Virus record (IMG/VR): IMGVR_UViG_3300042090_002148
DNA from: a virus
DNA length: 64,000 bases
Direction: 5' to 3' (one strand)
The notes under the pieces were generated by a model. The model saw nothing but the letters and a program-made list of their open reading frames with translations. It did no database searches and had not been told where the DNA came from. Positions within the stretch are counted from its first letter, which is position 1, and each line of letters begins with the position of its first letter. Made by a program: the position numbers and the translations under genes. This document shows, piece by piece, positions 10,002-33,385 of this stretch.

Positions 10002-10030
10002 AGCGTATCACCGGTGGTAATCCTAGGCAA
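10002..10030 (-). promoter_or_regulatory. Sigma70-like promoter TTGCCT-17-TACGCT, 6 nt upstream of GTG 9995
   Basis: -35 at 10030-10025 and -10 at 10007-10002 read directly. Confidence 0.6.
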
Positions 10031-11315: not shown

Positions 11316-11329
11316 GAGCTGACTCTACC

Positions 11330-14300
11330 TCAGTAGTGGTGCGGCGCGACGTCTTTGAGGTGACCTTGCCCTGGAACGAGGGAGTCCTTCTTGGTCAGCC
11401 CGATCTCTGCGCCGAACGCCAGAGCGGGAATGGGATGCGTGCCGTGGATGAGGGAAACACCGTGGACGGCCGCGGCCTCCTGAAGCGTTTCGCGCAGGTG
11501 GTTGTGCTGCAGCTTCGCCATCCAGTCCTCGTGGAGCTCGCGCGGCATGATGTCGATGCCCTTGAGGACCGGGGTGTGCTCGATGGGTGCCTTGCCGGCG
11601 TGAACGAGCTCCTCGTTCATCTTCCGAACAACAGGGAGCGGACGGAACTCTCCACGCAGAACACTGTCATGGTCTCCTGGATCTTCCACGCGGGTGAGGC
11701 TGCCCATCGACTTCACCACCATCTCGATGGCACGGCGCTTGAGGCCCTCGTTCTTGTACAGATCGAAGATGGACTCCGTCAGGTGGTTCTGGACCTTGTC
11801 CATCGAGCCGGTGGCCGCGAAGAGATGGTGCGGGTTCACCACGGTACGGTTCGGATCCGAGAGACGCTGCCCAGCCTCGACCTTCATCCCTACCTTCGGC
11901 GGGAACCACGGCCTGTAGCCGGCGATCACGGAAGCTCCAGGCAGGTTCTCGTGCAGGGCAAAGCCGCCGGCGTCCTTGCCGACGTGGTGCTTGCGCCCGC
12001 CCACGAAGATGTCCACGCCCGTGGCGGTCGGCTGGATCTTGTCGATGGTCCCCGCGGCGCTAGCGATGGTCGCCTGATTCGCGAGCTTCTTCGGCAGCCG
12101 GAGGAGGTTGTCGAAGTGCGCGAAGGCGCTGAGCAGCTTCGAGCCACCCTGCTCGCTGACACCGCCTGTGTGGAAGCTCTTGAGGGTGAGCTGGACTGCA
12201 CGCTCCCCTACGGCATGCGCCGCCTGGATTCCGACGTTCGTCCCGAGCTCGTAGTGCTGTCCCCCGGAGGTGAGGCCTGCGCACTTCTGACAGACGCCGT
12301 GTTCTTCCTCGCACTTCAGCGGCGAGCGCACCACGATGTTGGCGTGCGGGTCGGCTGCACGAATCTTCCCGACGTCTGCCGGTGTGAGCAGCGTGTTCGC
12401 GGGGATGTGTACGTTGCCGTGGTTGAAGTCCTGCTGGAGATAGCGGTCGTGGACGTCGGGCTCGTTGATGCCGAGCGCGATGCCTTCCTTCGTCCCGCAG
12501 TCGTGGCTGTTCACGAGCACGTTCATCATGCTCTGCATCAGCACCTTTGAGAGCGCGCCGGGCTTCTCGACCTCCTGCACCTTCATCACGGCGCCGCGGC
12601 GAGCTCCGTGCATCTGGGTCCAGTAGCTGCCCATGTCGAGCCCCTCGGAGTAGCTCTTCGTGACAGCGTTAGGGATGGGGCGGTCGTGGGCGTCGCGGTA
12701 GATCATCGGAGCCAGGACCATCTGACGGTACTGATCCCATCCAGGCTTCACACCGGCCTTGTACATCGTGAAGAGGTTGCTCGGGTTCTCCTCCTGGCTC
12801 TTCACGTGGAGCGCCTTCATCTCCGTGGCTGCCTCGTTGTACAACGCGACGACCTGGTGGTCCTTCTGCGCTTGGGTGAGCTTCGTGTTCGCCGCGACCT
12901 GCTTCACCTTCTCCTCGATAGGCCGCAGTGCCTTCTCTCGAGAGGCGACGTCCGGCACGAAGTCCTTGAGCGAGAGGGAGTGCGTGGGCATCGGCACGAA
13001 GATGCTCTTGTGCGGGTCGAGCGCGGCGTTGTGTGCTCCTCCCTTCCCGAGCTCGAACGGGTGACCGATGCCGGTGGGCCGTGGCACCAGCACCGAACCG
13101 AAGGCCGCACCGTTGCCGAGGTCCTTGAGCTTGTTCACCGAGCTGTCGTAGCTCGCGGTGTGCTCCTTCGCGATGCGTGTGAGCAGCTTGTCGAGCCCCT
13201 TCGTTCCGCCGTCCTTCGTACCAGCGTTGTCCAGGCGGTACTGCATGTCGTGCATCATGTGCGCCTCGAGGTCAGGTGGCACCGCGCTGGACAGGAGCAC
13301 ACGACCTGGGGTGGTCACACCGCCGGGGAGGTGGACCTGGTCCGTCATCTGGACATGGCCCTTCTGCACTGCGGACAACACCTCCGCCGGGTTCGCGTAC
13401 TTCTTCCCCGTGTCCTTTCCAACCACCGAGAGCTTGTACAGCCCGAGTGCGCTCTCGAGCGTGGGCTGGTACATGCTCTTGCCCGAGGCATCACTGAAGA
13501 GGTTGTTCGAGGGGTACATCTTGCGCGCCTCGGCCTTGGCTGCCTCCGTGATGGGCACGTACACGCTCATCGTGTCGCCGTCGAAGTCCGCGTTGAAGCC
13601 CCCGGTCACGAGGGGATGGATCTTGATGGCGTTGCCCTCGACCGCGCGCGCCTTGAACGCCTGGATGCTGTACTTGTGCAGCACCGGGTCGCGCTTCAGC
13701 AGCACGGGATGGTCCGCCATCACCTTGTCGAGCGCCTTCCAGACCTGCGCGTTCGGCTTCACGAGCAGCGGAGGCGCGTCCATCTCTGCGTGGATGGCGC
13801 CCATCTCCTTGAGCTTCCTCACCACGAAGGGACGGAACAAGTTGAGCGCAGCGTTCTTCGGTAGGCCCACCTCGTCGAGACCGAGCGCGGGCTCAGGCAC
13901 GATGGTGGACCTCATCGACAGGTCCTGACGCCGACTCAGCAGCACGTTCTGGAAGTAGCCATACTTCGGCGAGCTCCCTGCGATGCGGTGGAGGATGCCC
14001 TTCTCCTTGGCGTCTGCGTACGGTGTCCCGACGCCCATGAGCGCCTTGACCCCGTCGTAGTAGTCGACGCGCAGGTCCCGCTTACCGGACTCGAGGATGT
14101 TCTGCTTGATGACCGGATCCTTGAGCTCGTCGTTGACCTTCGCGAAGTCTGAGTAGAGCTGGTTCAGGTCGTCTGGCTTCAGGCTCCCGTCCGGCATCGG
14201 AGTGATGGGGCGCATCACCGGAGGGAGCACGGGCAGGTGGTGCAGGATGTACGCCTCGCTCGGCTTCAGCTTCAGGTCATGAAGCGCGCGCAAGAACTTC

Positions 14301-17300
14301 ACACGCTTCAACGCCGGATCGATCTTCGCCCCTGTCGCGTGGTCTAGTGCCAGCTGCGCAGGGCCGATCTCCTTGCGAACATCCACACGATCGAGGAGCA
14401 GCTTGATGCCAGCGCCTCCGGTGGCGCCCTTGTTAGGGTCGGTGAGCTGTCCGGTAGCGGTCACGCCCTTCTCGCCGTGGACGATGGACTGGAAGTCCTT
14501 CTTGCCGATCTGCGCCACGCTGCAGATGGCCTTCTCGAAGAAGGGGTTGGGCAGCGGCTCGGCGAGCTCGATGTGCGTCCAGTGTCGGCCGCCGTGCCCA
14601 CCGGTAAGGCGCTCGTCGAAGAGTCCGCCGGTGCGCGGCTTGAGCTCTCCCTTCGAGTCGAGCTTCGTGTTGAGACGCTCGGCCGCATGAGGCAGTGCCT
14701 TGGGCGCTAGCTCGAGGACCTGCGCGTCCGTCATCGGGGAGAGCGCGATGCTGTGTCCGACCTTGTCCACGTTCACGCCGGTCGCCCGCAGCATGTCGGT
14801 GAACTTCTGGTAAGCGAAGGTCGGCTTCGGTGGCGGGATGAGCCCGCCCGACTGGATGGCTGCCCAGATCTTGTTGTGGTCGCTCGGCCACGCCTTGCGT
14901 GGATCGGTCTGGGGGTCCACGCCTTCGGACTTGTACGTCTGCATCTCGCGCAGGTTGGCCTTCGCCCCATGCGCCAAGAGCGCGTAGAGATCGAGGCCGC
15001 CGATGGACGGACCACCGGTGCCCGAACCTCCCACCGGCTGCAGGTTCAGGTCATAGCCCTCGGGCTGTGTTCCGGGGATGTTCATCCCACTGCGCACCGA
15101 GAGCTTCTTCTCGACCTGATGCACGAGCTTGAGCAGGTGCTGCGGGCCCACAAGCGCCTTGCCCAGGGACTGGTGCGTATGGGGGTCGAAGAGCTCCTCG
15201 GTGTCCTCGAGACCGTGAGCCTTGAGATCCGCGGTCACTTTCTCGAGCGCGTTGAACTTCGGCTGGAAGTTCTGGACGATGTACGGCTTGCCTGTCTTCA
15301 GTGCGATCTTGCCGGCAGCGGTCTCGAGGACCTGACCCACGTTCATGCGGCCCGGTACACCGGAGGGGTTGAGCGCCACCTCGATGTGCTTGCCATCCTT
15401 CGTGTGGGGCATCTCCTTGTCCGGGAGGATCATCGTGCAGATGCCCTTGTTGCCGTAGCGACCGGCCAGCTTGTCGCCCACCTGCATGGGTTCCACGGTG
15501 CGCACGTGCACCGTCACGCCCTCCTTGGTGTGGTGGACGCCGACGACCTCGCCGTCGAACTCGCTGTCCCACCGCAGACTCTTGTCCACGTGCGCGGCAG
15601 CCATGATCTTGCGGACCGCGGCCATCCCCGTACGGTCCTTGAGCTGATAGGGCTTCATCGCCGTGATGAGCGGGTCGCCTGGCTTGACCGTCTGGCCGAC
15701 GCGGATGATGCCCTTGTCGTCGAGCTTGTCGAACTGCTTGTTGTTGTAGAGCCCGTGGTGCTCCAGCATGAAGCGCTTCTTGTCGAGCACCAGCGTGTCC
15801 TCGAGCGGCAACGAGGGCTTGTGCATGTGTGCGCTGGAGAGCGCGTCTGCGGCGCTCTGACTGATGACGACGCCGTCCTCGAAGTTGTATCCCTTGAACG
15901 GGATGTACGCGACGCGCAGGTTCGTACCGAGCGCCAACACCCCCTTCTTCGAGTAGTTCGTGTCGGCCACCACCTGGTTCTTCTTCACGCGGTCACCGAC
16001 AGCAACGATGGGCGTGGAGTCGAGCACCCCCTTCGCCTCGTTGACCGGGAAGTTGTGGTAGATCTGGACCTCGTGCTTCTCCCCTGTGTCGCTGTGGATG
16101 GTCACGCCATGTGGGGTCACCGCAGTGACCTTGCCGTCCGCCGGCGACGTGTGTGAGGTGAGCCCTCCCATGAGGCGCTCGAACGTCTGACCGCCCTCCG
16201 TGCTGGCTCCGGTGCCCACCTGTACGAGCGCGGGCTCACGGTGCACGAGGGAGATGGCCTGCTCCATGTGACGACTCGCCATCGAGGCGCGTCCACCCGA
16301 GGTGTTCGCCAGGAACGGCAGCAGGTTCGACGTCATGTTGAAGAGCTGGCTGGGGTAGCGAACGGCGTACTGGGCGTCGGCGAACTTCCCCTGCCGCACG
16401 TCGTCCCCACCACCCGTCATCTGGACCATGTCGCTGATGGGATGGGGCTTGCCGTCCACCCAGTGCACCTGGTCAGGCAGCACGATGCGTACCTTGGAGG
16501 CTTCTCCGGGGGACACGAGGTCGTACTTGCCGGTCTTCAGGTTGTAGAGCCGGATGCGCGCCTCACCGCGAGGCTCACCGTTCACGACGTGGTCGACCTT
16601 CTGCAGTCCGAAGGGAAGGCGCAGGGTCACCCCTGTCGACGCGCCCTCGGGGGTGTTGATGGGGTCGAGGAAGCCGAGGTGGCTGGCATTGATGAACTTC
16701 ACCTCGTCCTTGATCTGCCGATCGCTCTGGATGCCGCCGGGTCCCATGACCGTGGTCTGGAAAGATGCGGCCAGCATCTCCACCGGGTTGATCTGAGCTG
16801 CTGGCCCGGCCGCCGCGTTCTTCTGGAACGTCTCGAGGATGGGCTTGTTGAACATCCCGATCTGAACCACGTCACGAACGTTCTTCGCGGCGTTGATCTT
16901 GGCGGAGATCTTCCGCTGGATGACCTTGCGGCCGGCATCGAGGATGCGCTCGTGCGCGAAGTCACCCACCGAGCGGAGGTCCTTGAAGATGAGGGACTCG
17001 CGGTCGTCTTCCTTCTCACCGCCCTGCACCCGCAGGAGCTTCTGCGTGGCGCGCGTGAGTGCGTCTCCTGTGACGTGCTCGAAGGGCTTGCCCAGCGTGA
17101 GCTCCGTGGAGTCGGGCCGTAGCGTGGAGGCCGTCATCATGTCGTAGAAGTGAGCTGCCGCGGCCTCCCTGTCCGGGGCCGCGACCTTCTTCGTGCTCTT
17201 GTAGAAGGTGGCGAGCGCGCTGTCCTTCTTCGCGGCGTTCTTGTTCGCCTCGTAGACCTCCTTGCCCCAGGCCTTCTCAAGTGCCGCGTCGTCGACACCC

Positions 17301-17839
17301 AGCGTCTTCACGAGCTGGTAGAGCGGGATCTTGCTCGCGCTCTTGCCGTACTCCATGTGGAAGACCTTGCTGTCCGGGTCGAAGACGACGTCGAAGCTCT
17401 TGCGATTCTTGATGTTGAAGCGCGTCTCGAGCTCGCCGTTACTGCGCCGCTGCGTGTAGACGCCGGGCTTGAGCTGCCACTGGTTGTTGACCTGGTACTC
17501 CTTGGCGCCGCTGCGCGAGGCCACGATGTACGAGTACCGGTTCGTCATCTTCGGAATGTCGGCGATGCGCATCTTGCGCGAGTCCACGACGGCCCCGGTC
17601 GCGTTGTCGCGCAGCGTGAGGTTGGCGTACACCGGGACGGACCACGTCTCACCGGCGAGCTTGTGCGCGTGCTGGTCGCGGATGTCCGATGGATCCTTGT
17701 CGTCCTTGATGCTCAGCCCGTCGAGGTGGAGTGACTGAGCCTTCCCCTTGATGACGCCATCCGGGAATTGGCTCTTGATCCCCTCGAGCACGCGCTGCTG
17801 GAGGTTCTCGGACGCTTCTTTGGGATCCAGGTAGGCCAA
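11330..17839 (-). CDS. Single-chain DNA-directed RNA polymerase, bacterial-type beta fused to beta', ~2169 aa
   Basis: beta motifs GPGG, TPEG, GYNFED, GDKLAGRYGNKG, LNPSGVPGRMNVGQ, LKLVHQV; beta' motifs HIELA, LPVLPP, NADFDGD (13574-13594), bridge helix HGARRG, CxxC Zn site, trigger loop QLTLKSFHTGG; TTG start at 17839 preceded by GAGGT. Confidence 0.95.
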   Translation of the reverse strand: MAYLDPKEASENLQQRVLEGIKSQFPDGVIKGKAQSLHLDGLSIKDDKDPSDIRDQHAHKLAGETWSVPVYANLTLRDNATGAVVDSRKMRIADIPKMTNRYSYIVASRSGAKEYQVNNQWQLKPGVYTQRRSNGELETRFNIKNRKSFDVVFDPDSKVFHMEYGKSASKIPLYQLVKTLGVDDAALEKAWGKEVYEANKNAAKKDSALATFYKSTKKVAAPDREAAAAHFYDMMTASTLRPDSTELTLGKPFEHVTGDALTRATQKLLRVQGGEKEDDRESLIFKDLRSVGDFAHERILDAGRKVIQRKISAKINAAKNVRDVVQIGMFNKPILETFQKNAAAGPAAQINPVEMLAASFQTTVMGPGGIQSDRQIKDEVKFINASHLGFLDPINTPEGASTGVTLRLPFGLQKVDHVVNGEPRGEARIRLYNLKTGKYDLVSPGEASKVRIVLPDQVHWVDGKPHPISDMVQMTGGGDDVRQGKFADAQYAVRYPSQLFNMTSNLLPFLANTSGGRASMASRHMEQAISLVHREPALVQVGTGASTEGGQTFERLMGGLTSHTSPADGKVTAVTPHGVTIHSDTGEKHEVQIYHNFPVNEAKGVLDSTPIVAVGDRVKKNQVVADTNYSKKGVLALGTNLRVAYIPFKGYNFEDGVVISQSAADALSSAHMHKPSLPLEDTLVLDKKRFMLEHHGLYNNKQFDKLDDKGIIRVGQTVKPGDPLITAMKPYQLKDRTGMAAVRKIMAAAHVDKSLRWDSEFDGEVVGVHHTKEGVTVHVRTVEPMQVGDKLAGRYGNKGICTMILPDKEMPHTKDGKHIEVALNPSGVPGRMNVGQVLETAAGKIALKTGKPYIVQNFQPKFNALEKVTADLKAHGLEDTEELFDPHTHQSLGKALVGPQHLLKLVHQVEKKLSVRSGMNIPGTQPEGYDLNLQPVGGSGTGGPSIGGLDLYALLAHGAKANLREMQTYKSEGVDPQTDPRKAWPSDHNKIWAAIQSGGLIPPPKPTFAYQKFTDMLRATGVNVDKVGHSIALSPMTDAQVLELAPKALPHAAERLNTKLDSKGELKPRTGGLFDERLTGGHGGRHWTHIELAEPLPNPFFEKAICSVAQIGKKDFQSIVHGEKGVTATGQLTDPNKGATGGAGIKLLLDRVDVRKEIGPAQLALDHATGAKIDPALKRVKFLRALHDLKLKPSEAYILHHLPVLPPVMRPITPMPDGSLKPDDLNQLYSDFAKVNDELKDPVIKQNILESGKRDLRVDYYDGVKALMGVGTPYADAKEKGILHRIAGSSPKYGYFQNVLLSRRQDLSMRSTIVPEPALGLDEVGLPKNAALNLFRPFVVRKLKEMGAIHAEMDAPPLLVKPNAQVWKALDKVMADHPVLLKRDPVLHKYSIQAFKARAVEGNAIKIHPLVTGGFNADFDGDTMSVYVPITEAAKAEARKMYPSNNLFSDASGKSMYQPTLESALGLYKLSVVGKDTGKKYANPAEVLSAVQKGHVQMTDQVHLPGGVTTPGRVLLSSAVPPDLEAHMMHDMQYRLDNAGTKDGGTKGLDKLLTRIAKEHTASYDSSVNKLKDLGNGAAFGSVLVPRPTGIGHPFELGKGGAHNAALDPHKSIFVPMPTHSLSLKDFVPDVASREKALRPIEEKVKQVAANTKLTQAQKDHQVVALYNEAATEMKALHVKSQEENPSNLFTMYKAGVKPGWDQYRQMVLAPMIYRDAHDRPIPNAVTKSYSEGLDMGSYWTQMHGARRGAVMKVQEVEKPGALSKVLMQSMMNVLVNSHDCGTKEGIALGINEPDVHDRYLQQDFNHGNVHIPANTLLTPADVGKIRAADPHANIVVRSPLKCEEEHGVCQKCAGLTSGGQHYELGTNVGIQAAHAVGERAVQLTLKSFHTGGVSEQGGSKLLSAFAHFDNLLRLPKKLANQATIASAAGTIDKIQPTATGVDIFVGGRKHHVGKDAGGFALHENLPGASVIAGYRPWFPPKVGMKVEAGQRLSDPNRTVVNPHHLFAATGSMDKVQNHLTESIFDLYKNEGLKRRAIEMVVKSMGSLTRVEDPGDHDSVLRGEFRPLPVVRKMNEELVHAGKAPIEHTPVLKGIDIMPRELHEDWMAKLQHNHLRETLQEAAAVHGVSLIHGTHPIPALAFGAEIGLTKKDSLVPGQGHLKDVAPHHY

Positions 17840-17857
17840 CGGATGTACCTCAGCATC

Positions 17858-17887
17858 AGCGTACCGCGCGGCAGGAAAGCGGTGCAA
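17858..17887 (-). promoter_or_regulatory. Sigma70-like promoter TTGCAC-18-TACGCT for the RNAP gene
   Basis: -35 at 17887-17882, -10 at 17863-17858, followed by SD GAGGT and TTG 17839. Confidence 0.55.
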
Positions 17888-17919
17888 GCAACGTGTGGAT
17901 GCGGGGACAAGGATCTCGC

Positions 17920-18057
17920 ATGAAACAGACACCTAAACAGCCGCCGCCTACGCAAGGAGCTCGCTTCGCGGATCTCATCGCGGAGATGTTCGAGCCCAGA
18001 AAGAACAACGAACAGAAGACAGAAGAAGACGAGAAACGAGATAAGAAAACTGCGTGA
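17920..18057 (+). CDS. Possible small ORF, 45 aa (MKQTPKQPPP...EKRDKKTA)
   Basis: Translated by hand; below the track cutoff; purine-rich; may be non-coding. Confidence 0.25.
   Translation: MKQTPKQPPPTQGARFADLIAEMFEPRKNNEQKTEEDEKRDKKTA
18038..18053 (+). promoter_or_regulatory. GATAAG-box motif copy 1 (GAGATAAGAAAACTGC)
   Basis: 15/16 identical to the copy at 27880; sits at the head of a plus-strand unit. Confidence 0.6.
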
Positions 18058-18245
18058 ACACGCTGTGGAAGTACTTCATCGCGGGCCTTCTGAATGGACT
18101 CATGATCTGGATGCGCGAACGACTCAAGGAGGATGATGCTGCTCAACGTCTACGAAACGCGTCCGGAGGTGATCCCCGGAACGCGCCGACTGGAGGCGGA
18201 CTTCGGGATCCAAGGCCAGCGCCTCCGGGACCTGCACAACGCTGA
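18054..18245 (+). CDS. Possible small membrane-associated protein, 63 aa
   Basis: GTG directly follows the GATAAG box; hydrophobic LWKYFIAGLLNGLMIW; overlaps the next gene by 113 nt, so doubtful. Confidence 0.3.
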   Translation: MNTLWKYFIAGLLNGLMIWMRERLKEDDAAQRLRNASGGDPRNAPTGGGLRDPRPAPPGPAQR

Positions 18246-18723
18246 ACGGTTCTGGGAGGTGGGCGAGTCCTACCTCCCTTTCTACGGCCGCGCCCTCGGC
18301 GGCATACGCGTCAAGCTTACGGACCAGAAGGGCTTCATCACGTTCTGCAACCAGCGTGACTTCGAGGTGCTTCTGGGGATGGCGCGCCCTGGCGAATGGT
18401 GTCGCTGGGCGCACGAGGAGTACGTCGCACCCGGCCACGAGAAGTGGGTGGGCTTCTGCTGCGACGAAGCGGATGTCGAGGACGTGTTGTTCGGAGCCGA
18501 GCTGACGCTCCGACAGTACAGCCAGTACAACGGCTGGCTCATTCCTCCGATGGACGTGGAGTTCCGCATCCACGTCGAGGCCGGGTACGACGTCGAAGAA
18601 ACGCACGTACTCATCCTGGACCACGACCCGGAGACGGGGCTGGGTCCCGACACACAACTCGAGACGCTTCATCGCCGATGGGCGCGCTCAGAAAGGAGGC
18701 GTATCCAATGGAACCGGGTCTGA
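18133..18723 (+). CDS. Hypothetical protein, 196 aa
   Basis: AAGGAGG SD; globular composition. Confidence 0.65.
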   Translation: MMLLNVYETRPEVIPGTRRLEADFGIQGQRLRDLHNAERFWEVGESYLPFYGRALGGIRVKLTDQKGFITFCNQRDFEVLLGMARPGEWCRWAHEEYVAPGHEKWVGFCCDEADVEDVLFGAELTLRQYSQYNGWLIPPMDVEFRIHVEAGYDVEETHVLILDHDPETGLGPDTQLETLHRRWARSERRRIQWNRV

Positions 18724-19301
18724 CTCTTCCCCCTGCACCCCGGCGCAACTCGGGCAACAACTGCGCCGACCCTGACTGTGACGCCACGCTGTTCTACGGC
18801 GACGAGGTCGTCCGCATCCAGGTTGTCTTCGCTCAACGCGGAGACGGCGAGATTCTCCAGTACCCAGTTCTCGACGAGGAAGATCCGGCCCGGGACTTCT
18901 TGTTCGAGCCGTACTACTTCTGCATGGACTGCTGGAGCAAGACGTACGAGTTCGCGAAGAGCGAGCTCGCAGATCAGCTGCCTGTGTCCGACGTGCACAG
19001 CGTCTTCGAGTGCTCCTTCTGTGCGAGCGGTATCCGCGAGGTGACGGAGTACGCGGGCGTCGCCGAGATCGGAGAGTTCGAGCTCTCCAAGCGCGCGCCG
19101 GACGGACTGAAGGGGCCGATCTTCGTGGTCACCGCAAAGCCGATGCTCCTCTGCATCAGCTGCCTCCAACTCATCAACGAGGGCTACATCGAGCTCTGGT
19201 CGAACCTTTCACAGAACAACGAGTGCATCGACTGCTGCACCGCGCGTTGCTGGCGCGCTCCCTGTTCCTGTACCTGCCACACGGAAGAGACCCCCGAATG
19301 A
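18708..19301 (+). CDS. Cys-rich putative multi-zinc-finger protein, ~197 aa
   Basis: AAGGAGG SD before ATG 18708; CADPDC, CMDC, CSFC, CISC, CIDCC..CSCTC. Confidence 0.7.
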   Translation: MEPGLTLPPAPRRNSGNNCADPDCDATLFYGDEVVRIQVVFAQRGDGEILQYPVLDEEDPARDFLFEPYYFCMDCWSKTYEFAKSELADQLPVSDVHSVFECSFCASGIREVTEYAGVAEIGEFELSKRAPDGLKGPIFVVTAKPMLLCISCLQLINEGYIELWSNLSQNNECIDCCTARCWRAPCSCTCHTEETPE

Positions 19302-20524
19302 ACCTCAAGCTCATCATGTACATCTGCCTCCTCACTCCCGCGAAGCCCGTCGGCAAGGAGTGGCGCTGGGGCGTTCCTTACCTCCTGATGGGGGCTCCTT
19401 CGACCGCGAAGACCAGCAGCATTATCCAGGTCTGCGAACGCATGCAGGCGCCCAACGAGACGCTGTACCTGAGCACCCACATGCCGGAAGACCTCTCCGG
19501 CATCCCGGTGGTGATGAACGGGAAGGGGCAGCGCGTGAACTTCATGGCCGAGGTCGACGCACTTGCAGCACAGGGCTGCGGAGTCTTGGTGCTGGACGAG
19601 CTCACCACCGCGCGAGAGACCACGCAGAACGCCGCGATGGGGCTCGTCCTCGAGCGCGTGTTGGCTGGAACGAAGCTGCCCAACGGCCTACGCATCGCCG
19701 CCGCCGCGAACCCGCCCGAGCAGGCTGCTGCGGCTCGCGACCTGTCCCTCCCGGCTGCGAACCGCTTCCTGCACTTCGACGTGACGGAGGAGAACCGGCA
19801 GGGCTTCGATGAGACCCTCGAGCGGAGCTGCGCGTTGGCGCGCGGCGAGGAACCGCCGCCCTACACCGAGGAAAACGAGCTCGGCACGCTCAAGGACGGC
19901 GAGAAGATGGTCATGCAGCGCTGGGGTGTGGCGTTGCCGCGTACCTGGCGCCTCGTGAAGCGCTTCCTCGACAGCGCACCCGACCGCCTGACCGTCATCC
20001 CGCCCGTCGGGAACCCTGCGCGTGGCCGCGCCTGGGCCTCCAAGCGCAGCTGGGAGATGGGGACCATGGCGATGGCCGCTGCTGAGGCGCTCGCGCATCC
20101 CGAGTGCAACGCAGACCTTCTGACCGCCGCAGTCGGGGAAGACATCGCAGGCGAGTACATCGAGTTCGTCACCAAGCTGAACCTGCCCCACCCGACGGAC
20201 GTCATCAGCGGCAAGTGGACCCCGGACAAGACGCGCCTCGACACCGCTGCAACCGCGTTCGAGTCCGCGACGCTGTTCATCCTCGGCACCACCGACAAGG
20301 CGCTGCAGGCGCAGTACATCACGGACTACTGGGGCGTTCTCCACAAGGCCGCGGTCAAGCACAACTTTCTCGATGTCGTGCGAGGCAGCATCGAGTCCAT
20401 GGTGCAGCGCGGCTTCGCCAACCAGAGCATCAACCCGGAGTTCCACAAGGCGGCCAACCCCCTGCTCACCGCCTTGGGCGAGAAGTTCCACGAGCACCTG
20501 AACTTCCCGACAGCCGCTCCATGA
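19298..20524 (+). CDS. MoxR-type AAA+ ATPase, ~408 aa
   Basis: Walker A GAPSTAKT, Walker B VLVLDELT, sensor AAANP, arginine finger ANRFLH; ATGA overlap with the upstream stop. Confidence 0.85.
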   Translation: MNLKLIMYICLLTPAKPVGKEWRWGVPYLLMGAPSTAKTSSIIQVCERMQAPNETLYLSTHMPEDLSGIPVVMNGKGQRVNFMAEVDALAAQGCGVLVLDELTTARETTQNAAMGLVLERVLAGTKLPNGLRIAAAANPPEQAAAARDLSLPAANRFLHFDVTEENRQGFDETLERSCALARGEEPPPYTEENELGTLKDGEKMVMQRWGVALPRTWRLVKRFLDSAPDRLTVIPPVGNPARGRAWASKRSWEMGTMAMAAAEALAHPECNADLLTAAVGEDIAGEYIEFVTKLNLPHPTDVISGKWTPDKTRLDTAATAFESATLFILGTTDKALQAQYITDYWGVLHKAAVKHNFLDVVRGSIESMVQRGFANQSINPEFHKAANPLLTALGEKFHEHLNFPTAAP

Positions 20525-21807
20525 CAGACATCAACGAAGCCGAGGCGAAGATCTCTCTCGCGCGTACCATCGTTCGCTCGAAGGGTCCCTACTACTCGAA
20601 GACGATGGCCAGCCTGGTGTTCATGCCCCTCGAGGGCATCAAGACCATGTGCGTGACCACGAACCTCATCCTCGGCTACGACCCGGAGTGGGCGCTCATG
20701 GCGCCCGCGACGGTACTCGCCGCGGACGTTGTTCACGAGATCAACCACTTCATCCGGCGGCATCTTTACCGCATCCCCGGCGGAGACCCGCACCTGAAGA
20801 ACATCGCCGGCGACCTGTCCATCAACCCCGACCTCCTCATCGGAGGTTGGGACTTGGCGGACAAGACCTCGCCACGACCTGCCATCCTGCCGAAGGACTT
20901 CAAGTTCCCCGACGGGCTCTCACAGGAGGAGTACTACGCGCTCCTGCTGAAGGAACAACAGAAGAAGAACCCGAAGCTGCAGGAGATGCTCGATGCGCTG
21001 CGCGGTGGCCAGGGCGGCGTAGGCAGCGGTGCCTGCGGCGGCATCGCCCAGGGTGCGGGGCTCTCCGCTGCTGAGAAGGCACTCGAAGCCATCCCCGGAG
21101 TCGGTCGCTCGAAGGCCGAGATCAAGAACGTCGAGGTCATCGCAGCGAAGCAGATCAAGGACTACGTCGCCCAGAAGGGACGGGGTTCCGTCCCTGAGAA
21201 GCTCATTCGCGATGCAGAGCTCTCCAAGGAGATCTCAAGGATCCGCTGGCAGGACATCCTGTCTCGCGTCGTCCGCACCGCCACGGGGCAGATCACGCTG
21301 GGCGGCGAGATCGAGCCCTCGTACATACGACTCTCACGGCGCATGCAGCCGGAGATGGGCATCATCCGTCCGAGCTACATCACGCAGATGCCCGAGATCG
21401 CCATCGTGCGCGACACCTCGGGCTCGATGGGACAGAAGCAGCTGCAGGACTGCGTGCGCGAGTCCTACGCCATCGTGAAGAGCTTGGGCATCGACGAGGT
21501 CTGGTTCACGGACGCAGATGCTGCCGTGGCAATGCCCTGGCAGCGCGTGAGGAAAGAGTTCTTCGAGAAGCTGACAACTTCTCGAGGGGGAGGCGGAACA
21601 GACTTCGCTCCTGCTATCAAAGACGCACTGAAGCTCAAGCCGAAGCCCGACCTCCTCATCTACTGCACCGACGGCGACGGCTACGCAGGCGACGCCCCAC
21701 GAGGCATGGGCGTCGTGTTCGCTGTCGTCCCGTCCCACTACAACAAGGCCCCCTGCGAGTGGGCCACCACCGTCTTCATCGAAGACCCGGAGAAGAGCAC
21801 GTCGTAG
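20521..21807 (+). CDS. DUF2201-type putative metallopeptidase + vWA domain protein, ~428 aa
   Basis: HEINH (HExxH); MIDAS DTSGS; GGGTDF; YCTDGDG; ATGA-coupled to the MoxR gene. Confidence 0.85.
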   Translation: MTDINEAEAKISLARTIVRSKGPYYSKTMASLVFMPLEGIKTMCVTTNLILGYDPEWALMAPATVLAADVVHEINHFIRRHLYRIPGGDPHLKNIAGDLSINPDLLIGGWDLADKTSPRPAILPKDFKFPDGLSQEEYYALLLKEQQKKNPKLQEMLDALRGGQGGVGSGACGGIAQGAGLSAAEKALEAIPGVGRSKAEIKNVEVIAAKQIKDYVAQKGRGSVPEKLIRDAELSKEISRIRWQDILSRVVRTATGQITLGGEIEPSYIRLSRRMQPEMGIIRPSYITQMPEIAIVRDTSGSMGQKQLQDCVRESYAIVKSLGIDEVWFTDADAAVAMPWQRVRKEFFEKLTTSRGGGGTDFAPAIKDALKLKPKPDLLIYCTDGDGYAGDAPRGMGVVFAVVPSHYNKAPCEWATTVFIEDPEKSTS

Positions 21808-21808
21808 T

Positions 21809-21833
21809 GAAGGAGGGCCTCGTGCCCTTCTTC
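21809..21833. terminator. Hairpin between convergent genes, possible bidirectional terminator
   Basis: GAAGGAGGGC-ctcgt-GCCCTTCTTC, a 10-bp stem with one G-U pair, fills the whole intergenic gap. Confidence 0.55.
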
Positions 21834-23879: not shown

Positions 23880-24811
23880 ACGGGTGACTCCGGCGCCTGT
23901 CCGGCAGCAGCGGGACTCATGACGCGTTCAGTGGCGGTCTGCTGTGCCTCGGTTGGCTCCATCGTAGGAGTCGGGGCGTTGTGGAGTCGACGCCCCCGAA
24001 GACGATCTACTCCACGACCTGCCCAGGCACCGACCTGAGAAGACCCCGCACCGAGCGCGGCCTGCCCACCCATCGGCAGCATGCCACCGGCGATGCCGCC
24101 CACCGCACCTCCAACCGCACGACCCACGGACTCACCTCGGCCCTGTCCTTCTTCGGTCGGAGCAAGAGCACCTGCCGCGAGGGGGAGCCCGACGGCTGCT
24201 GCAGTCAGAAGTGGTTGGTTACGCAACTGCTCTTCCGCGCTCGTGCGCAGCGTATTGCCGACGCCGTTGTTCTTCATCGACTTGAGGTAGCCGGGGATGC
24301 TGGTGAGTCCCATGTTCTGCGCCTTCTCGGAAGCGTTTAGCGCTTTCTCCAGCCGTGGGACACTCCTGCTCCCCTCGGCCTTTGCTGTCGCGAGCGCTTG
24401 ACGAGCATCATGTGCTCCGCCGCGCACTCCCTCGATCTCTGCAGGGGAAAGCATTCCGGTGAAGCCATGAACCTGTCGTTGACCGAACCGTGACGCCGCG
24501 CCCATAGCGCCCGAAGCTTGCGTAAGGTGGCTGAGATCTTTCTTGACCAGGCCGCCAGCTGCTCCGCCAGCGAGACCACCAACCATCCCGCCCATCGTCG
24601 CGCCTTGAACAGCACCCCCGAGAGCTCCTGAGACACCACTCTGTCCGTTCTCCTCTGCGTGCTGGTAGCCGTGGATGCCGCCAAGGACTGCTCCACCGCC
24701 GGCGCCCAGCAGAGCACCACGCCCGCCGAGCGCACCGATGTTCTTCAACGCGAAACCGGCCTCCTTGCGGAGCTCGTCGCGGAACGCGAGCAGCATGGCC
24801 TCATCGAGCAT
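23876..24811 (-). CDS. Gly/Ala-rich putative internal virion protein, 311 aa
   Basis: N-terminal AFRDELRKEA; GGAVLGG-type glycine-zipper helices. Confidence 0.65.
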   Translation of the reverse strand: MLDEAMLLAFRDELRKEAGFALKNIGALGGRGALLGAGGGAVLGGIHGYQHAEENGQSGVSGALGGAVQGATMGGMVGGLAGGAAGGLVKKDLSHLTQASGAMGAASRFGQRQVHGFTGMLSPAEIEGVRGGAHDARQALATAKAEGSRSVPRLEKALNASEKAQNMGLTSIPGYLKSMKNNGVGNTLRTSAEEQLRNQPLLTAAAVGLPLAAGALAPTEEGQGRGESVGRAVGGAVGGIAGGMLPMGGQAALGAGSSQVGAWAGRGVDRLRGRRLHNAPTPTMEPTEAQQTATERVMSPAAAGQAPESPV

Positions 24812-25595
24812 GGAACAACCCCAGCTGGTTCATGAGTCGTTCGCGGTTCTCGTTGAGCTGCTGCTGCACCACAAGGAGACGATCCAGCTGCACAGCCACG
24901 GGTGTTGTAGCAGGAAGCGGCTTGCCTGCGCGCAGTACCTCGTCACAACGAGCCTGCACAGCACCGAGGTCCAGTCCCTCGGGGGCGTCAGGTGTCACGA
25001 AGTCAGCGGGTGGCAGCGTGCGGTAGATCCCATCGTGCTCGTAGATGGTCTTGACGTACGCCTTGAGCTCCTCCGACCAAGCCGGCACGCCCTCGGTGCG
25101 AACGTGTCCGGCCGTGGCGCAGGCGATGAGCACCTGACCTACCGTCGGCACCTGCATCACCACGAAGTCCGGGAACTCGCCGTTGAACGGCATGCAGCAT
25201 GCGAGGAAGACTCCCCAGCGTTCCCAGAAGGCGTCAGAGAGAAGGAGCGCACGCACCGCCTGGATCTTCGACAGGTTCAACGCGCTCAACCCGACGCCGA
25301 GGAACTCCTCCGCGATGCGGGGAGCAAACGTCTCGGCTTCCCACTCGAGCCAGTCGTCGCCGAAGGCGCCTCGAAGAAGAGCCTGGAGCACTACGGGGTG
25401 TGCCTCGGGGTGGCCCCAGATGTTCTGCTTCGTCACCGCGGCGAGAGGCAACGGGATGGTGGTCGTGGTCACCGTAGGGACGGGTGGCGTCGACTCGAGG
25501 TGCTCAGTGACGGCGTCCTCCAGAGGAAGATGAGGAGCGCCGACGTTCTTGAGCGTCTCGAGGAAGGTCTCCTCGGAGATGGGCAGCGGGGCCAT
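24801..25595 (-). CDS. Hypothetical head-block protein, 264 aa
   Basis: Trp-rich conserved-looking core HPEAHPVVL..WLEWEAET..KIQAVR..FWERW; SD GAGAGGGA. Confidence 0.7.
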   Translation of the reverse strand: MAPLPISEETFLETLKNVGAPHLPLEDAVTEHLESTPPVPTVTTTTIPLPLAAVTKQNIWGHPEAHPVVLQALLRGAFGDDWLEWEAETFAPRIAEEFLGVGLSALNLSKIQAVRALLLSDAFWERWGVFLACCMPFNGEFPDFVVMQVPTVGQVLIACATAGHVRTEGVPAWSEELKAYVKTIYEHDGIYRTLPPADFVTPDAPEGLDLGAVQARCDEVLRAGKPLPATTPVAVQLDRLLVVQQQLNENRERLMNQLGLFHAR

Positions 25596-25606
25596 CGCGT
25601 CCCTCT

Positions 25607-27298
25607 CTAGTACGCCGGCTCTGCGCCCGGTGCGGTGCCCTGCGCCATGTGGATGACCATCTTCTTCTGGTCGCGGGGCAGGCTCTCGTAGACGCCGATG
25701 GGGTCCTTGCGGAACTCCTCCTGGAAGTCTTCACCGAAGGTGTCACGCACCGTGTGCGTCCCGACGTGCGCGAGACGCTTCAGGTCCGCGTAGGTGATCA
25801 TGTCGTTGCCGATGATGTCGGACCACGACGACTTGCTCGCGATCTTCTCGTTGCCGAAGATGGAGAAGTAGGGGTCAGGGATCGTCTTGTCGTAGGAGCG
25901 GTTCAGCCCGGTGTCCTTGTCGAACTCCGAGAGCAGTGCGCACGCCTCGACGGGATGAAGGGCCAGCGACGCCAGCTTCGAGCCACCCTGCGTGAGGATG
26001 ACGTCCTCCACGGCATCGAGGACACGAAGCACGTCAGGGTACGCCTGGAGCTCTGCCCGTCGCGCGTCGAAGGCGATCTTGATCTCGGTCTCCGGAGCGA
26101 GGCCCTCTGCGCCGTACTTGTGCGCGATGTCCGGGATGTCGATGGCCATCGCCGACGCCTGCTTCACGAGGTTCACGGCGTACTCACGGCGCTCTTCGGG
26201 AGCGAAGAACTTGTAGTACTCCCCGAAGTAGGAGCCTGCTGCCTTCACCTGCGCGTAGCTGTCGAGCGGGTAACGGGACAAGCTTGGCAGCGCGTACTTG
26301 CTGGCCTTCTTCTCCGTCACGTAGGTCGGAGGCTTCGCGTTGGTGACGTCCACTGTCGGCTGCAGGTGCTTCGCCTGCGGCAACGACTTCGGTCCCTCGC
26401 CAGCGATGGCGCTGTTCTCCTGCAGCATCTCCTCGTGGTCGCTCTTCGAGGCCGAGACCAGATGACCGACGCGCGCGGTCTTGTTGATGGTTGTCTTCGA
26501 CGGGGTCGGCGAGAGCTTCCCAGGCTCCTCCATGGGAGCAGTCGTTGTGCCGTTGACCTCTGCCCCTTTGAACGTGCTCATCAACTGTCCGCCTGCCTGG
26601 CCGGCCGCAGCCATGTTGTTCTTGATGGCACCTCCTGCACCTACAGCCGTGCGCGCCAAACCCACGGCCTTACCGATGCCGCCCGGCAACATCTCAGCTG
26701 CGCTACCCAAGAGCTCACCACCAAGACCCGCGAACTTTGCGCCAGCTCCCATGTGCTGCTGCACCGCTTTCTGCGCCGAGGCGACGTTCACAGGCCCACC
26801 GGTGGCACCTGCGTAACCCGCCACCCGATCACCCTGCATGATGCGCTTATACCTTCCTCCATACTGCGCCTTCATGCGGGCCTCTACGGCCATCTGCTCA
26901 GGACTGCCCAGTACGTTGGTAGCATCCGATGAACCCATGCCCGCCTTCTTCACAAGTTCCTCTGGGACCTCGAGGTCGTACCAGCCAGAGGCGACGATGA
27001 GGTTCTCCGCGGCTGTCTTCTGCGCCTCGACGGGAAGCTTGTGCGCGTTCTTGAGGAAGTACGCGACGGAGAGCTCGGTGTTGCCTGGGTCGACGCAGGC
27101 GTACTTCCTGAGCTTCTCTCCGTTGTTCACCATGACGAGTGCGAAGACGTCGTCCGGCAGCCGGTTGCGCGTGCCTTTCAGGTCTGACGCCACCTTCACG
27201 CCTTCCGGCAGCGCGTCGAGCGTGGGGTAGAGAGAACGCAGAGTCTCTCCGTTGAAGTCGTCGTAGACATCGAGAATGAGGCCGCTGATCGAGTCCAT
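25607..27298 (-). CDS. Putative virion/head protein, 563 aa
   Basis: Nine KxA-type motifs; YALP..YPLD..VKAA..YF block; heads an operon leading to the portal. Confidence 0.75.
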   Translation of the reverse strand: MDSISGLILDVYDDFNGETLRSLYPTLDALPEGVKVASDLKGTRNRLPDDVFALVMVNNGEKLRKYACVDPGNTELSVAYFLKNAHKLPVEAQKTAAENLIVASGWYDLEVPEELVKKAGMGSSDATNVLGSPEQMAVEARMKAQYGGRYKRIMQGDRVAGYAGATGGPVNVASAQKAVQQHMGAGAKFAGLGGELLGSAAEMLPGGIGKAVGLARTAVGAGGAIKNNMAAAGQAGGQLMSTFKGAEVNGTTTAPMEEPGKLSPTPSKTTINKTARVGHLVSASKSDHEEMLQENSAIAGEGPKSLPQAKHLQPTVDVTNAKPPTYVTEKKASKYALPSLSRYPLDSYAQVKAAGSYFGEYYKFFAPEERREYAVNLVKQASAMAIDIPDIAHKYGAEGLAPETEIKIAFDARRAELQAYPDVLRVLDAVEDVILTQGGSKLASLALHPVEACALLSEFDKDTGLNRSYDKTIPDPYFSIFGNEKIASKSSWSDIIGNDMITYADLKRLAHVGTHTVRDTFGEDFQEEFRKDPIGVYESLPRDQKKMVIHMAQGTAPGAEPAY

Positions 27299-27305
27299 GC
27301 TCCGT

Positions 27306-27311
27306 ATCCTA
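27306..27311 (-). promoter_or_regulatory. -10-like hexamer TAGGAT, 7 nt upstream of ATG 27298
   Basis: Read directly; no -35 box seen. Confidence 0.45.
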
Positions 27312-27316
27312 CCCGG

Positions 27317-27820
27317 TCACGCGGGCGATTGGTACTGCAGCAGGTACATCCGGGCCTTCTCGGTCCTTACCGGATCCTTCTCCAAGAAGCCGACAGTCAG
27401 GTTGCATCCATGGCACAGCAGCGCCCGCAGCTTGTTCGTTCGGTGGTTGTGATCTACGCACAGCGGCTTCCCGCCTGGCTGTGGCTTGCCACAGATGGCG
27501 CAGACCCCTCCTTGGGCGCGTACACGCTCCTCGTACTCTTCCGCGGTGAGCCCGTACTCTCGAAGGAAACGTTCCCTGTTGTACTGCTTGCGCTCCGCCT
27601 TGTGTGCATCTCTCCAGCGTTGGGCGGTGGCACGCCCCTTCTCGCTGATCGCGTATCTACGCTGAACCGGCTGCGTCGTACGCGGCTTGCCGCGGTAGTA
27701 GTGGGCGTTGTAGTGCTCGCGGCAGAAGGACATGCTGTACGCCTCCCTTTTACAGCCACTCGGCTCTGCGCACTGTTTGCCCTTGTTCTTCTGGTACTTC
27801 TTTCGGCGCTCCGTGTACAC
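27317..27820 (-). CDS. Endonuclease VII-type HNH endonuclease
   Basis: YGLTAEEY..QGGVCAICG..VDHNH..RALLCHGCN..GFLEKDP. Confidence 0.9.
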   Translation of the reverse strand: MYTERRKKYQKNKGKQCAEPSGCKREAYSMSFCREHYNAHYYRGKPRTTQPVQRRYAISEKGRATAQRWRDAHKAERKQYNRERFLREYGLTAEEYEERVRAQGGVCAICGKPQPGGKPLCVDHNHRTNKLRALLCHGCNLTVGFLEKDPVRTEKARMYLLQYQSPA

Positions 27821-27879
27821 AATTCGCTTAGTACTCTGGAACTAAGTGAAAAGCAAACGGCAAGTTAGGCGCGAGCAAG

Positions 27880-27895
27880 GAGATAAGAAACCTGC
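27880..27895 (+). promoter_or_regulatory. GATAAG-box motif copy 2 (GAGATAAGAAACCTGC)
   Basis: Head of the replication block, in a divergent intergenic region. Confidence 0.6.
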
Positions 27896-27919
27896 CACGT
27901 GACTATGCCAGGAGGCCGC

Positions 27920-28585
27920 ATGAACGTATCTGTCGCACCGACACCGAGCGTCTCACAAGGAGCGCCGAGTTGCTTCGGAAAGGAGTGGGACAATCGAGCA
28001 CCCGAGTGTACTGGTGGACCCGACCCGAGCTTCAAGGACGAGGAGGGCAAGCACGTCCGCATCCGTTGTGGATGGTTCACGACGTGCGGGTCCGTGACTC
28101 AATCCGCGCGCCAGCTCATCGCACCGCAGACGTTGATCCGTCCACAAGCCCCCGCGGCGCCGTCGTTCGTGCCGACGCCCCCGGGCATGCCGCCGCGTCC
28201 GATGTGGACGCCCCCCGTTTCTCACCCACCCGTCGCGCCGCAGTCTGTTCAGACTGACTGGCAGCGCATCGAGCAGCAACGACAAGAGGGCCTGCGTCGT
28301 CTACAGGCCACCCCACCCCCGCAGTACCAGCCCATACCGTCAGGGCAGCAGATGCAGCCCCAGCAGTTCGTGCAGATGCAGGGGCCCGTCCACTACCCGG
28401 CGCAGACCTGGCAGGTCGGCTACGGAATGCCCGCCTATCTCACCCACGAAGAAGTACGGCAGACCGGAGAGTCCTGGTGGTCCGTGTTCATACGTGAGAT
28501 CTTTCGCGGCGCGTTGAAGGCGCTGTTTCACTCAGGAGCGCGCTACATAGACGTCAACCCGTTCAAGGGTCCACCCAGGAGCTAG
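27920..28585 (+). CDS. Hypothetical protein with N-terminal Cys cluster and Pro/Gln-rich middle
   Basis: GGAGG SD before ATG 27920; CFG..C..C..C N-terminus; C-terminal amphipathic helix. Confidence 0.65.
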   Translation: MNVSVAPTPSVSQGAPSCFGKEWDNRAPECTGGPDPSFKDEEGKHVRIRCGWFTTCGSVTQSARQLIAPQTLIRPQAPAAPSFVPTPPGMPPRPMWTPPVSHPPVAPQSVQTDWQRIEQQRQEGLRRLQATPPPQYQPIPSGQQMQPQQFVQMQGPVHYPAQTWQVGYGMPAYLTHEEVRQTGESWWSVFIREIFRGALKALFHSGARYIDVNPFKGPPRS

Positions 28586-29089
28586 ATGAGAAGACTGAAC
28601 CTGACGGGGCGGCGCTTTGGCCGCCTCGTCGCAGTAGCACGCGAAGGAAGCGACGGCAGCGGTGGCGCTACCTGGCGTTGCCGTTGCGACTGCGGTCAGG
28701 AGAAAGTCATCAGCGCACACTCGTTGAACAAGGGACGTACCGTCTCGTGCGGTTGCTGGAACCGCACGAGACCACGAGCAACGCACGGTGAAGCATCGCC
28801 CAGCACCCGCACAACTGAGTACCGTATCTGGTCTGCGATGAAGGATCGCTGCGGTAACAGCAAGAACCCACAGTACAAAGACTACGGCGGTAGGGGCATC
28901 ACAGTTGACCCACGCTGGCTAACGTACGAAAACTTTCTCGAGGACATGGGACGTCGGCCTCCTGGTCTCACCATCGAACGAAACAACAACGACGGACCGT
29001 ACGCACCCTGGAACTGTCGCTGGGCTACACGCAAAGAGCAACAAGCCAACACAAGGAAGCGACATGGACATCATCGTACGGCGCCCTAA
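28586..29089 (+). CDS. HNH homing endonuclease
   Basis: LTGRRFGRL..WRCRCDCG..SCGC..YRIWSAMKDRC..YGGRGI..TIERNNNDGPYAPWNCRWAT. Confidence 0.9.
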   Translation: MRRLNLTGRRFGRLVAVAREGSDGSGGATWRCRCDCGQEKVISAHSLNKGRTVSCGCWNRTRPRATHGEASPSTRTTEYRIWSAMKDRCGNSKNPQYKDYGGRGITVDPRWLTYENFLEDMGRRPPGLTIERNNNDGPYAPWNCRWATRKEQQANTRKRHGHHRTAP

Positions 29090-32616: not shown

Positions 32617-32619
32617 GCG

Positions 32620-32916: not shown

Positions 32917-33242
32917 TTCGCGGGCACATGAAGTGCGACGGAATCGCGCTGGGCGAAGCGAGTTTCAGCTTCATGAACTCGGGCGGCATCGTCCTCGAGG
33001 CGAAGGCCGCTTTCGTCAGCACGAAGACCGGCGACACGTACGGCTGGACGAAGAACACGGTCTGGTCTCCGCCCACCATCGAGAAGCTGAAGGAGCTCCG
33101 CACGTTGATGGAGATCGATCTCGGTCACCTTCACCTCGAGGAGGGCGGCGAGTCGCTCACGGGCGCCTCAGCGCCTACGGAGGGACGCGGGCTGGGCAGC
33201 ATGCCGAAGGGCGGGATCGGCGAAGAGGTTGGGTCCGTCTGA
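32913..33242 (+). CDS. Hypothetical protein, ~109 aa
   Basis: GTGA overlap with the upstream stop and a GGAGG SD. Confidence 0.55.
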   Translation: MIRGHMKCDGIALGEASFSFMNSGGIVLEAKAAFVSTKTGDTYGWTKNTVWSPPTIEKLKELRTLMEIDLGHLHLEEGGESLTGASAPTEGRGLGSMPKGGIGEEVGSV

Positions 33243-33369
33243 CCCCCTACCGCTAGTGGCGTGACCTGCCGTCCACGCAGCTAATAGAGAAAGCGCGGAG
33301 GCGATTGACGTGGGCCGCGCGGGCGGCCACGGTGATCGTCCCCCGCGTGTCCACTTTTGTTAGCCGTGG

Positions 33370-33385
33370 GGGATAAGAGGTCCGC
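33370..33385 (+). promoter_or_regulatory. GATAAG-box motif copy 3 (GGGATAAGAGGTCCGC)
   Basis: In the largest intergenic gap, 33 nt upstream of the helicase ATG. Confidence 0.5.

Follow-up and report, generated by a model that had tools for sequence, protein, structure and literature searches.

The closest described relatives of the transcription system treated here are found in Arash, a cultured phage of Salmonella (OQ632216; PMC10585845), and in the Vibrio phages D69, D148, and D181. These phages encode a homologous RNA polymerase (RNAP; 31-32% identity) beside the portal gene on the virion strand and an orthologous sigma factor (Gp10 in Arash), and they share the two promoter classes and the back-to-back promoter pairs described below; in Arash, both RNAP and sigma are present in the particles. 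They differ in that the C-terminal third of beta' is a separate gene, in that they encode a second, RpoD/RpoS-like sigma factor, and in that their late motif is a tight TAAAAT. The Arash paper gives no promoters or transcription programme (PMC10585845). In the crAss-like phage phi14:2, gp66 is a single-chain virion RNAP of about 2200 amino acids (aa) that serves the early replication module, while the middle and late genes, the RNAP gene among them, lie on the other strand and are read by host RNAP with its primary sigma factor (bioRxiv 10.1101/2020.03.07.982082). Here, we analyzed a 64,000-nucleotide (nt) stretch of viral DNA, IMG/VR record IMGVR_UViG_3300042090_002148 (hereafter the window), which is part of the genome of a large, tailed, high-GC (about 63%) phage. 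It encodes a fused beta-beta' RNAP and carries two motif classes that are segregated by strand and conserved among relatives, which also share a conserved sigma factor.

The reading that we favor, with moderate confidence, is that an injected phage core and a phage sigma factor transcribe the early and replication genes, and that host RNAP with its primary sigma factor transcribes the late genes, including the RNAP gene. A single-chain beta-beta' core and a sigma-28-like factor would be made late and both packed into the virion. After injection, this alpha-less holoenzyme would recognize GCAAG-N15-GGNATAAGA (class E) and transcribe the early, accessory, and replication units. The virion genes and the RNAP gene would then be transcribed from TAnnnT (class L) by a primary-sigma-type holoenzyme, most likely that of the host, giving late mRNAs that would often be leaderless or short-leader, and the RNAP product would be packaged for the next round. 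Injection, the assignment of enzymes to promoter classes, and the timing are what we infer from the features listed below.

11330-17839, minus strand: fused beta-beta' RNAP, 2169 aa, a single uninterrupted open reading frame (ORF) with a likely TTG start at 17839
10023-11315, minus strand: gp5/gpV-like spike gene, directly downstream of the RNAP ORF
17858-17887, minus strand: predicted class-L promoter of the RNAP gene (TTGCAC 17887-17882, 18 nt, TACGCT 17863-17858)
17884-17912, plus strand: predicted class-E promoter at the head of the MoxR unit (GCAAG 17884-17888, 15 nt, GGGACAAGG 17904-17912), score 19.0

An original prediction, made from this DNA alone, had placed a fused 2169-aa RNAP within the virion block just upstream of the spike gene, and this was borne out: the ORF is uninterrupted, contains both domain sets with an intact NADFDGD catalytic motif, and lies on the strand of terminase and portal. 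Beta domains precede beta' domains in the one chain, and the beta lysines, bridge helix, and trigger loop of a two-barrel core are all present. Nearly the whole protein can be aligned to the bacterial subunits, with E 1e-76 for beta and E 2e-97 for beta'. It retains the flap tip and the clamp helices in diverged form, and the zinc-binding Cys loop at the N-terminus of beta', as read from the sequence, is deleted. In an alignment to bacterial beta, the rifampicin pocket is replaced at the equivalents of Q513, D516, H526, R529, and S531 (E. coli numbering), which predicts resistance, and the RNAP is thus probably rifampicin-resistant. No alpha subunit was found with PF01000 or PF01193 in four near-complete relatives or in Arash. 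Seven related loci (L032, L077, L098, L106, L118, L123, and L125) have RNAP ORFs of 2391-3249 aa instead of the usual ~2150 aa, which probably contain inteins.

A profile scan for relatives of the RNAP confirmed 232 viral-contig stretches, 72 non-redundant loci of which were analyzed, with a tree of the loci built in FastTree. The closest relative is a 183-kb IMG/VR contig (G002) with an RNAP identity of 95%. In the window, the minus strand carries the virion genes (terminase 2279-4138, spike, portal 21834-23879, and probable tail genes past 46.6 kb) and the plus strand carries MoxR, helicases, primase, PolA, a uracil-DNA glycosylase (UDG), a RecA-like gene, and a Cas4-like gene; this assignment of genes to strands is unchanged throughout the related loci.

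Class E is bipartite and has the geometry of sigma-28 promoters, with two boxes at matching spacing: the upstream element GCAAG begins 20 nt before the core, and a TG follows at +13/+14. The layout in the fliC promoter of Pseudomonas aeruginosa is TCTAAAG and GCCGATAA (PMC12784957). The original prediction had proposed a motif search in relatives carrying the same RNAP, and this search succeeded: divergent from the RNAP gene, the core GGNATAAG occurs with at most one mismatch in 68 of 69 loci and is perfect in 42. Another 45 intergenic cores, picked by the core alone, also show the upstream element, with AA at -18/-17 in 30 of them. Class-E boxes are oriented, have a fixed spacing, and typically lie tens of nt before genes; across the loci, which are related and so not independent, they stand upstream of 31/338 genes on the strand opposite the RNAP and of 2/735 on the RNAP strand. 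An unsupervised genome-wide k-mer search recovered GGTATAAG in Arash (30 vs 1 by strand) and GTTATAAG in D69 (18 vs 1), both favoring the non-virion strand. Such constancy among phages with unrelated hosts is explained most simply if a phage protein reads the motif, so that recognition travels with the phage. A matrix built from the relatives, with the window left out, gave four window sites scoring at least 14, all on the plus strand, compared with 0-1 in shuffles. The further class-E features of the window are as follows.

17920-18057, plus strand: charged ORF of 45 aa that opens the class-E unit; similar short ORFs are found there in most relatives
18038-18046, plus strand: site of the originally predicted GATAAG, inside this short ORF, score 17.9; a second promoter or a coding coincidence
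27860-27888, plus strand: predicted class-E promoter, the best site of the window, score 23.5, with an equal score in G002
33350-33378, plus strand: predicted class-E promoter heading DnaB, primase, and PolA, with a perfect core (16.7, the best-scoring one) and a weaker upstream element; conserved in G002
44326-44354, plus strand: weaker class-E candidate in a coding region, 75 nt before the gene at 44421, score 17.4, the same in G002

Conservation of the sites at 27880 and 33370 rests on the matrix and one close relative, G002, the sole further dnaB-region locus from the scans. The promoter at 27860-27888 heads a unit comprising a Zn/QP-rich ORF, a superfamily 2 helicase, and UDG. The first of these (27920-28585, plus strand) has a Cys-containing N-terminus, a Gln/Pro-rich middle, and no Pfam match. 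The original prediction had a GATAAG box heading the replication and MoxR units. GATAAG is indeed found on the plus strand at 18040, 27882, and 33372, but the bare hexamer is enriched neither in the window (4 seen, 7.6 expected) nor in five relatives, and what carries the signal is the full two-part motif. Across the genomes of high-GC relatives, even the 9-mer core shows no clear enrichment by itself, so that both the upstream element and the position are needed. The box at 18040 does not hold as head of the MoxR unit: it falls on Asp-Lys codons of the 45-aa ORF, and only 12/63 loci have a second box at the equivalent place. The conserved head is at 17884-17912, with a GACAAG variant as its core (17904-17912).

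The charged ORF is followed by a short hydrophobic ORF beginning at 18054, and such a charged-then-hydrophobic pair (17920-18245, plus strand) is the first product of the RNAP-adjacent class-E promoter in most relatives. In G002, positions 81145-82543 (L016) carry tandem class-E promoters, one before each small ORF, and this is probably the earliest region of the genome. In a deep branch (L117, L120, L121, and L122), the divergent class-E box is only 9-21 nt away from the start codon of the RNAP gene, too close for a class-L promoter to fit in between.

A candidate reader of class E, missed in the original prediction, is a conserved FliA/WhiG-like sigma factor orthologous to Arash Gp10. Its gene lies outside the window and was therefore examined in the G002 copy and in 16 near-complete relatives; orthologs are found in 15 of the 16, G002 included (match at 61819-62199, E 3e-20 to Gp10), and are encoded on the virion strand where checked. 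They align across regions 2-4, as members of the sigma70 superfamily do. Their best family matches are FliA/WhiG models, but at 14-37 bits compared with a TIGR02479 cut-off of 189.6. A predicted model of the G002 sigma (predicted TM-score, pTM, 0.44) retrieved with Foldseek only sigma70-family chains among the 50 matches listed (E about 1e-6, with low TM-scores). Both this sigma and the clamp helices of the core have diverged from the bacterial consensus. A class-E box precedes the sigma gene in 2-3/16 relatives, while in most of them none is found within about 350 nt. The boxes lie 23-28 nt upstream in L130, L131, and L137, which suggests positive autoregulation in some lineages. The sigma-28-like factor is a better candidate for recognizing class E than the core acting by itself. 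Class E is very probably read by the phage sigma and, with somewhat less assurance, probably on the phage core.

General sigma models revealed no second conserved sigma in G002 and most relatives. Sporadic extra FliA-, ECF-, or RpoD-like sigma genes occur in G003 (127288-127815 and 145447-146001), G009, G011, and G014, and are absent from G002. Among the genes of the window, hhalign gave no match to a late sigma, though its positive control was weak. The second sigma of Arash (gp196) and D69 (0246) is RpoD/RpoS-like with a Pfam match to region 2 only, and a search of the 16 closer relatives with near-complete genomes gave no homolog of it.

Class L, on the virion strand, consists of TAnnnT placed 4-20 nt before the start codon. 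It precedes 9/20 genes on the minus strand but none of the 24 on the plus strand (p 2e-4), with about 2% expected by chance for each gene; stop codons do not account for it, since the few overlaps with a stop were excluded. In four cases, the hexamer lies 6-7 nt before the start codon, which is the geometry of a leaderless mRNA initiated from a primary-sigma -10 element. TAnnnT precedes 52/69 RNAP genes, compared with a background of 11%. The hexamer varies by lineage, being TAAAAT in the Salmonella and Vibrio phages and TACGCT-like and degenerate here. Besides the promoter of the RNAP gene, the following class-L sites were found.

11322-11327, minus strand: predicted class-L -10 (TAGAGT) of the spike gene
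27306-27311, minus strand: predicted class-L -10 (TAGGAT), 7 nt before an ATG, with leaderless geometry
1516-1521, 4150-4155 (terminase), 8170-8175, and 9421-9426, minus strand: further predicted class-L -10 sites
50456-50461 and 58461-58466: further predicted class-L -10 sites

Both motif classes are almost certainly promoters. They had been described as mutually exclusive, which holds per gene on one strand (both classes before only 4/1073 genes) but not across strands at the RNAP locus. TTGCAC-18-TACGCT is present before the RNAP gene as predicted, and its TTGCAC overlaps the GCAAG of the class-E promoter on the other strand, sharing four bases. The overlap accounts for much of the conservation of TTGCAC. 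Nevertheless, the RNAP -10 lies exactly 18 nt from TTGCAC in 26/64 loci (the next commonest spacing occurs in 3), and TTG is kept in 27/28 loci with a spacing of 17-18 nt, compared with 12/36 others. Loci with the 18-nt spacing are scattered over the tree, and their spacers have decayed to random identity (33%). Because spacing and TTG are kept across the tree while the spacer decayed, the shared bases likely serve both as class-E element and as -35 of the RNAP gene. A GTGSRG-like extension before the RNAP-gene -10 is conserved as well. Arash and D69 have similar back-to-back pairs of both classes at the head of their portal-RNAP unit. Speculatively, class-E occupancy of these overlapping divergent promoters could delay expression of the RNAP gene by occlusion, up to the point where replication has left the injected enzyme outnumbered. 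The strand rule has an exception in the orthologs of the gene at 1557-2282 (plus strand), which carry TAnnnT in 10/17 cases. This gene encodes a helix-turn-helix regulator (HTH_17) divergent from a virion gene on the early strand, and is a candidate late or switch regulator.

That the RNAP is packaged is supported by analogy to Arash, in whose virions mass spectrometry detected the RNAP part Gp206 more than any other protein (3516 spectra; capsid 1333), together with Gp216 and the sigma factor Gp10 (PMC10585845). We calculated from these data 10.3 unique peptides per 100 aa for sigma, 9.8 for capsid, 8.4 and 6.6 for the RNAP parts, and 5.5 for portal. The tabulated early-strand enzymes have 0-2.5, and terminase, endolysin, and gp196 have none. 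The two RNAP parts and sigma occur at near-equal density (2.3, 2.0, and 2.0 spectra per residue). In addition, an N-terminal KxA tag, a pattern chosen after the sigma alignment was seen, occurs in 15/16 sigma orthologs and three virion-strand families compared with 18/348 (5%) opposite-strand proteins, and could be a head-targeting or protease signal. The KxA-rich virion-strand families correspond to 288-1508, 5805-8162, and 25607-27298 (minus strand, a 563-aa gene), with 1.2-2.0 motifs per 100 aa compared with about 0.1-0.2 elsewhere. These motifs are possibly prohead-protease or head-targeting sites, and the N-terminus of the Arash capsid protein has one too. The RNAP described here is probably packaged as well.

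The original proposal of a packaged RNAP for early genes and sigma70-type transcription of late genes gains independent support from the conservation of the motifs in about 70 loci and two cultured phages and from the Arash proteome; the part to be changed is the one that had the core recognize its promoters alone. Several observations weigh against the scheme that we favor. The p-values of the per-locus counts are overstated by the relatedness of the loci. The Arash preparation was impure and contained many non-virion enzymes, and its RNAP is a distant homolog (about 32% identity) with a split beta'. An N-terminal KxA tag was also considered for the RNAP itself, where it is not conserved (10/69). 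In the more distant phage YerA41, the genes of the particle-associated RNAP peak early, not late (PMC7354516). No phage alpha was found in the genomes searched, which leaves the assembly of an active core hard to account for; host alpha may serve. For the late tier, no TTG peak is found at 118 non-RNAP class-L sites, no -35 accompanies TAAAAT in Arash or D69, and such -10-only sites are unusual for host sigma70 acting unaided; no late activator was identified. Finally, the second sigma of D69 has class-E boxes upstream and, like that of Arash, could read late promoters.

The absent TTG peak also rules out a general sigma70 -35 at the structural genes, which had been predicted to have sigma70-like promoters; what they share is the -10 TAnnnT. 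Reading of late genes by the host holoenzyme, the weakest step of the scheme, is in our view moderately likely. It gains from the -10 and -35 of the RNAP gene and loses from the missing -35 at most late sites and from the second sigma of Arash and D69. The explanation that competes best keeps the early tier but gives TAnnnT to machinery modified by the phage, which would make late transcription largely independent of host sigma70: a late sigma recognizing a -10 only (as T4 gp55) could act on either core, host or phage, or some other factor could act with the phage core. The -10-only sites, the tight TAAAAT(A) of Arash and D69, and the RpoD/RpoS-like gp196 and 0246, with class-E boxes at the D69 gene and gp196 absent from virions, speak for such machinery. 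However, the 16 near-complete relatives closer to this phage yielded no homolog of that second sigma and the general models gave sporadic extras only, the RNAP promoter holds a TTG-18-TAnnnT geometry in 26/64 loci, and the hexamer is degenerate here, as expected of a host primary sigma. We consider this alternative unlikely; that no second sigma of this kind was found in the closer relatives favors the host holoenzyme here, perhaps with an activator.

A second alternative has the phage sigma redirect the host core to class E, leaving the packaged core a narrower job such as the first transcripts or genome internalization. It would suit the ordinary three-domain sigma70-family fold of the phage sigma, the 2-3/16 relatives in which the sigma gene has its own class-E box (extra early sigma without extra core), and the failure to find a phage alpha in four near-complete relatives and Arash. 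We regard it as improbable, given the near-equal spectral density of RNAP and sigma in Arash particles, the parallel divergence of sigma and clamp helices expected of a co-evolved pair, and the lack of a class-E box within about 350 nt of the sigma gene in most relatives. That class E is read by host FliA/WhiG or is a protein-binding operator, with particle RNAP as carry-over, is very improbable despite its resemblance to host sigma-28 promoters, the impure Arash preparation, and the early RNAP genes of YerA41, as the core is GGNATAAG instead of GCCGATAA and stays constant in phages whose hosts are unrelated, the motif is oriented and bipartite with fixed spacing, typically tens of nt before genes, and RNAP tops the detection in Arash while late non-virion proteins are undetected.

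The units flanking these promoters comprise the following features.

18136-21807, plus strand: MoxR unit, with two conserved genes of unknown function, an AAA+ ATPase (19298-20524), and a partner gene (20521-21807)
21812-21836: hairpin and T-rich tract (-17.7 kcal/mol), a terminator candidate between the converging MoxR unit and portal gene
21834-27298, minus strand: portal (21834-23879; matches Arash portal, E 5e-81) and three upstream virion-strand genes

The product of the partner gene contains HExxH and von Willebrand factor type A (vWA) DxSxS motifs, as read from the sequence. Its PHROG label is HNH endonuclease, yet these motifs resemble the metallopeptidase-vWA partner of MoxR (PMC7824862). 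A long stable hairpin (-61.9 kcal/mol) is located at 45992-46100, in the space that separates the replication block from the tail block, which run toward each other. Four ORFs were judged by eye to be homing-endonuclease-like: 27317-27820 (minus strand), 28586-29089 (plus), 8302-8760 (plus), and 52560-53276 (minus). The first of these sits between divergent class-L (27306) and class-E (27860) promoters.

Compared with other described systems, the fused RNAP differs from phi14:2 gp66, which is highly divergent, related to RNA interference polymerases, and has neither a sigma factor nor a detectable early motif. Enzymes of the gp66 type have no cellular beta/beta' profile match and a DFDID-type site, whereas the RNAP described here has strong bacterial matches and NADFDGD. 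N4, which the original prediction took as its model, likewise uses a virion RNAP first and host RNAP for late genes (PMC13434306), but its virion enzyme is T7-like (PMC7824862), recognizes single-stranded hairpin promoters, and needs the middle enzyme RNAPII and an activating single-stranded DNA-binding protein. Neither a counterpart of RNAPII nor an activator of this kind was identified here, the enzyme is two-barrel, and class E is a linear bipartite motif, all unlike N4-like phages (Schitoviridae); the closest precedent is phi14:2, with two tiers rather than three. The remark that the known examples have non-bacterial architectures overlooks the phiKZ/AR9 virion RNAPs, beta/beta' homologs that are, however, split and sigma-free (PMC7598289). 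These phages also package their enzyme and have a conserved early motif, but they use a second phage RNAP for late genes (PMC7598289), while one fused enzyme and a conserved sigma70-family factor were found here; a second RNAP set was not searched genome-wide. The bacterial sigma-28 (FliA/WhiG) system has two boxes, matching spacing, and a shared ATAA core (PMC12784957), but its consensus differs, and the core described here has no encoded alpha and no beta' zinc-binding domain. The mReC Caudovirales (PMC7481178) and YerA41 (PMC7354516), likened by their descriptions, also have phage beta and beta' detectable with cellular profiles, and in YerA41 the RNAP subunits and a sigma are particle-associated (PMC7354516). 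Unlike here, their subunits are separate, no promoters are reported, and the RNAP genes of YerA41 are early.

In the literature searched, with most subscription papers outside the search, we came across no paper that describes these promoters, the fused enzyme, or what the sigma does. Of the characterized virion RNAPs found (N4, phi14:2, phiKZ/AR9, and P23-45), none is reported to use a sigma70-family factor. The same motifs in the cultured phage Arash make the whole model testable. A bolder generalization, which we hold tentatively and consider more doubtful than the scheme itself, is that a widespread lineage of ~185-kb phages injects a minimal bacterial-style holoenzyme, consisting of a self-assembling alpha-less single-chain core and a sigma-28-like factor, with the early-to-late switch timed by divergent promoters that overlap in a common -35 region, where the injected enzyme would keep out host RNAP until titrated by replication. 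A packaged core that needs a sigma but no phage alpha would offer nature's own test of whether bacterial-type RNAPs can do without alpha, and would be a candidate for a small, orthogonal expression system that resists rifampicin and has a defined promoter. The sequences point to a real, well-conserved system and to a new variant of the virion-RNAP strategy, whose packaged, sigma-dependent single-chain core without phage alpha would be a fourth solution to starting an infection. Its logic is closer to the two tiers of phi14:2 than to the three tiers of N4, and it falls outside both families as well as the phiKZ type.

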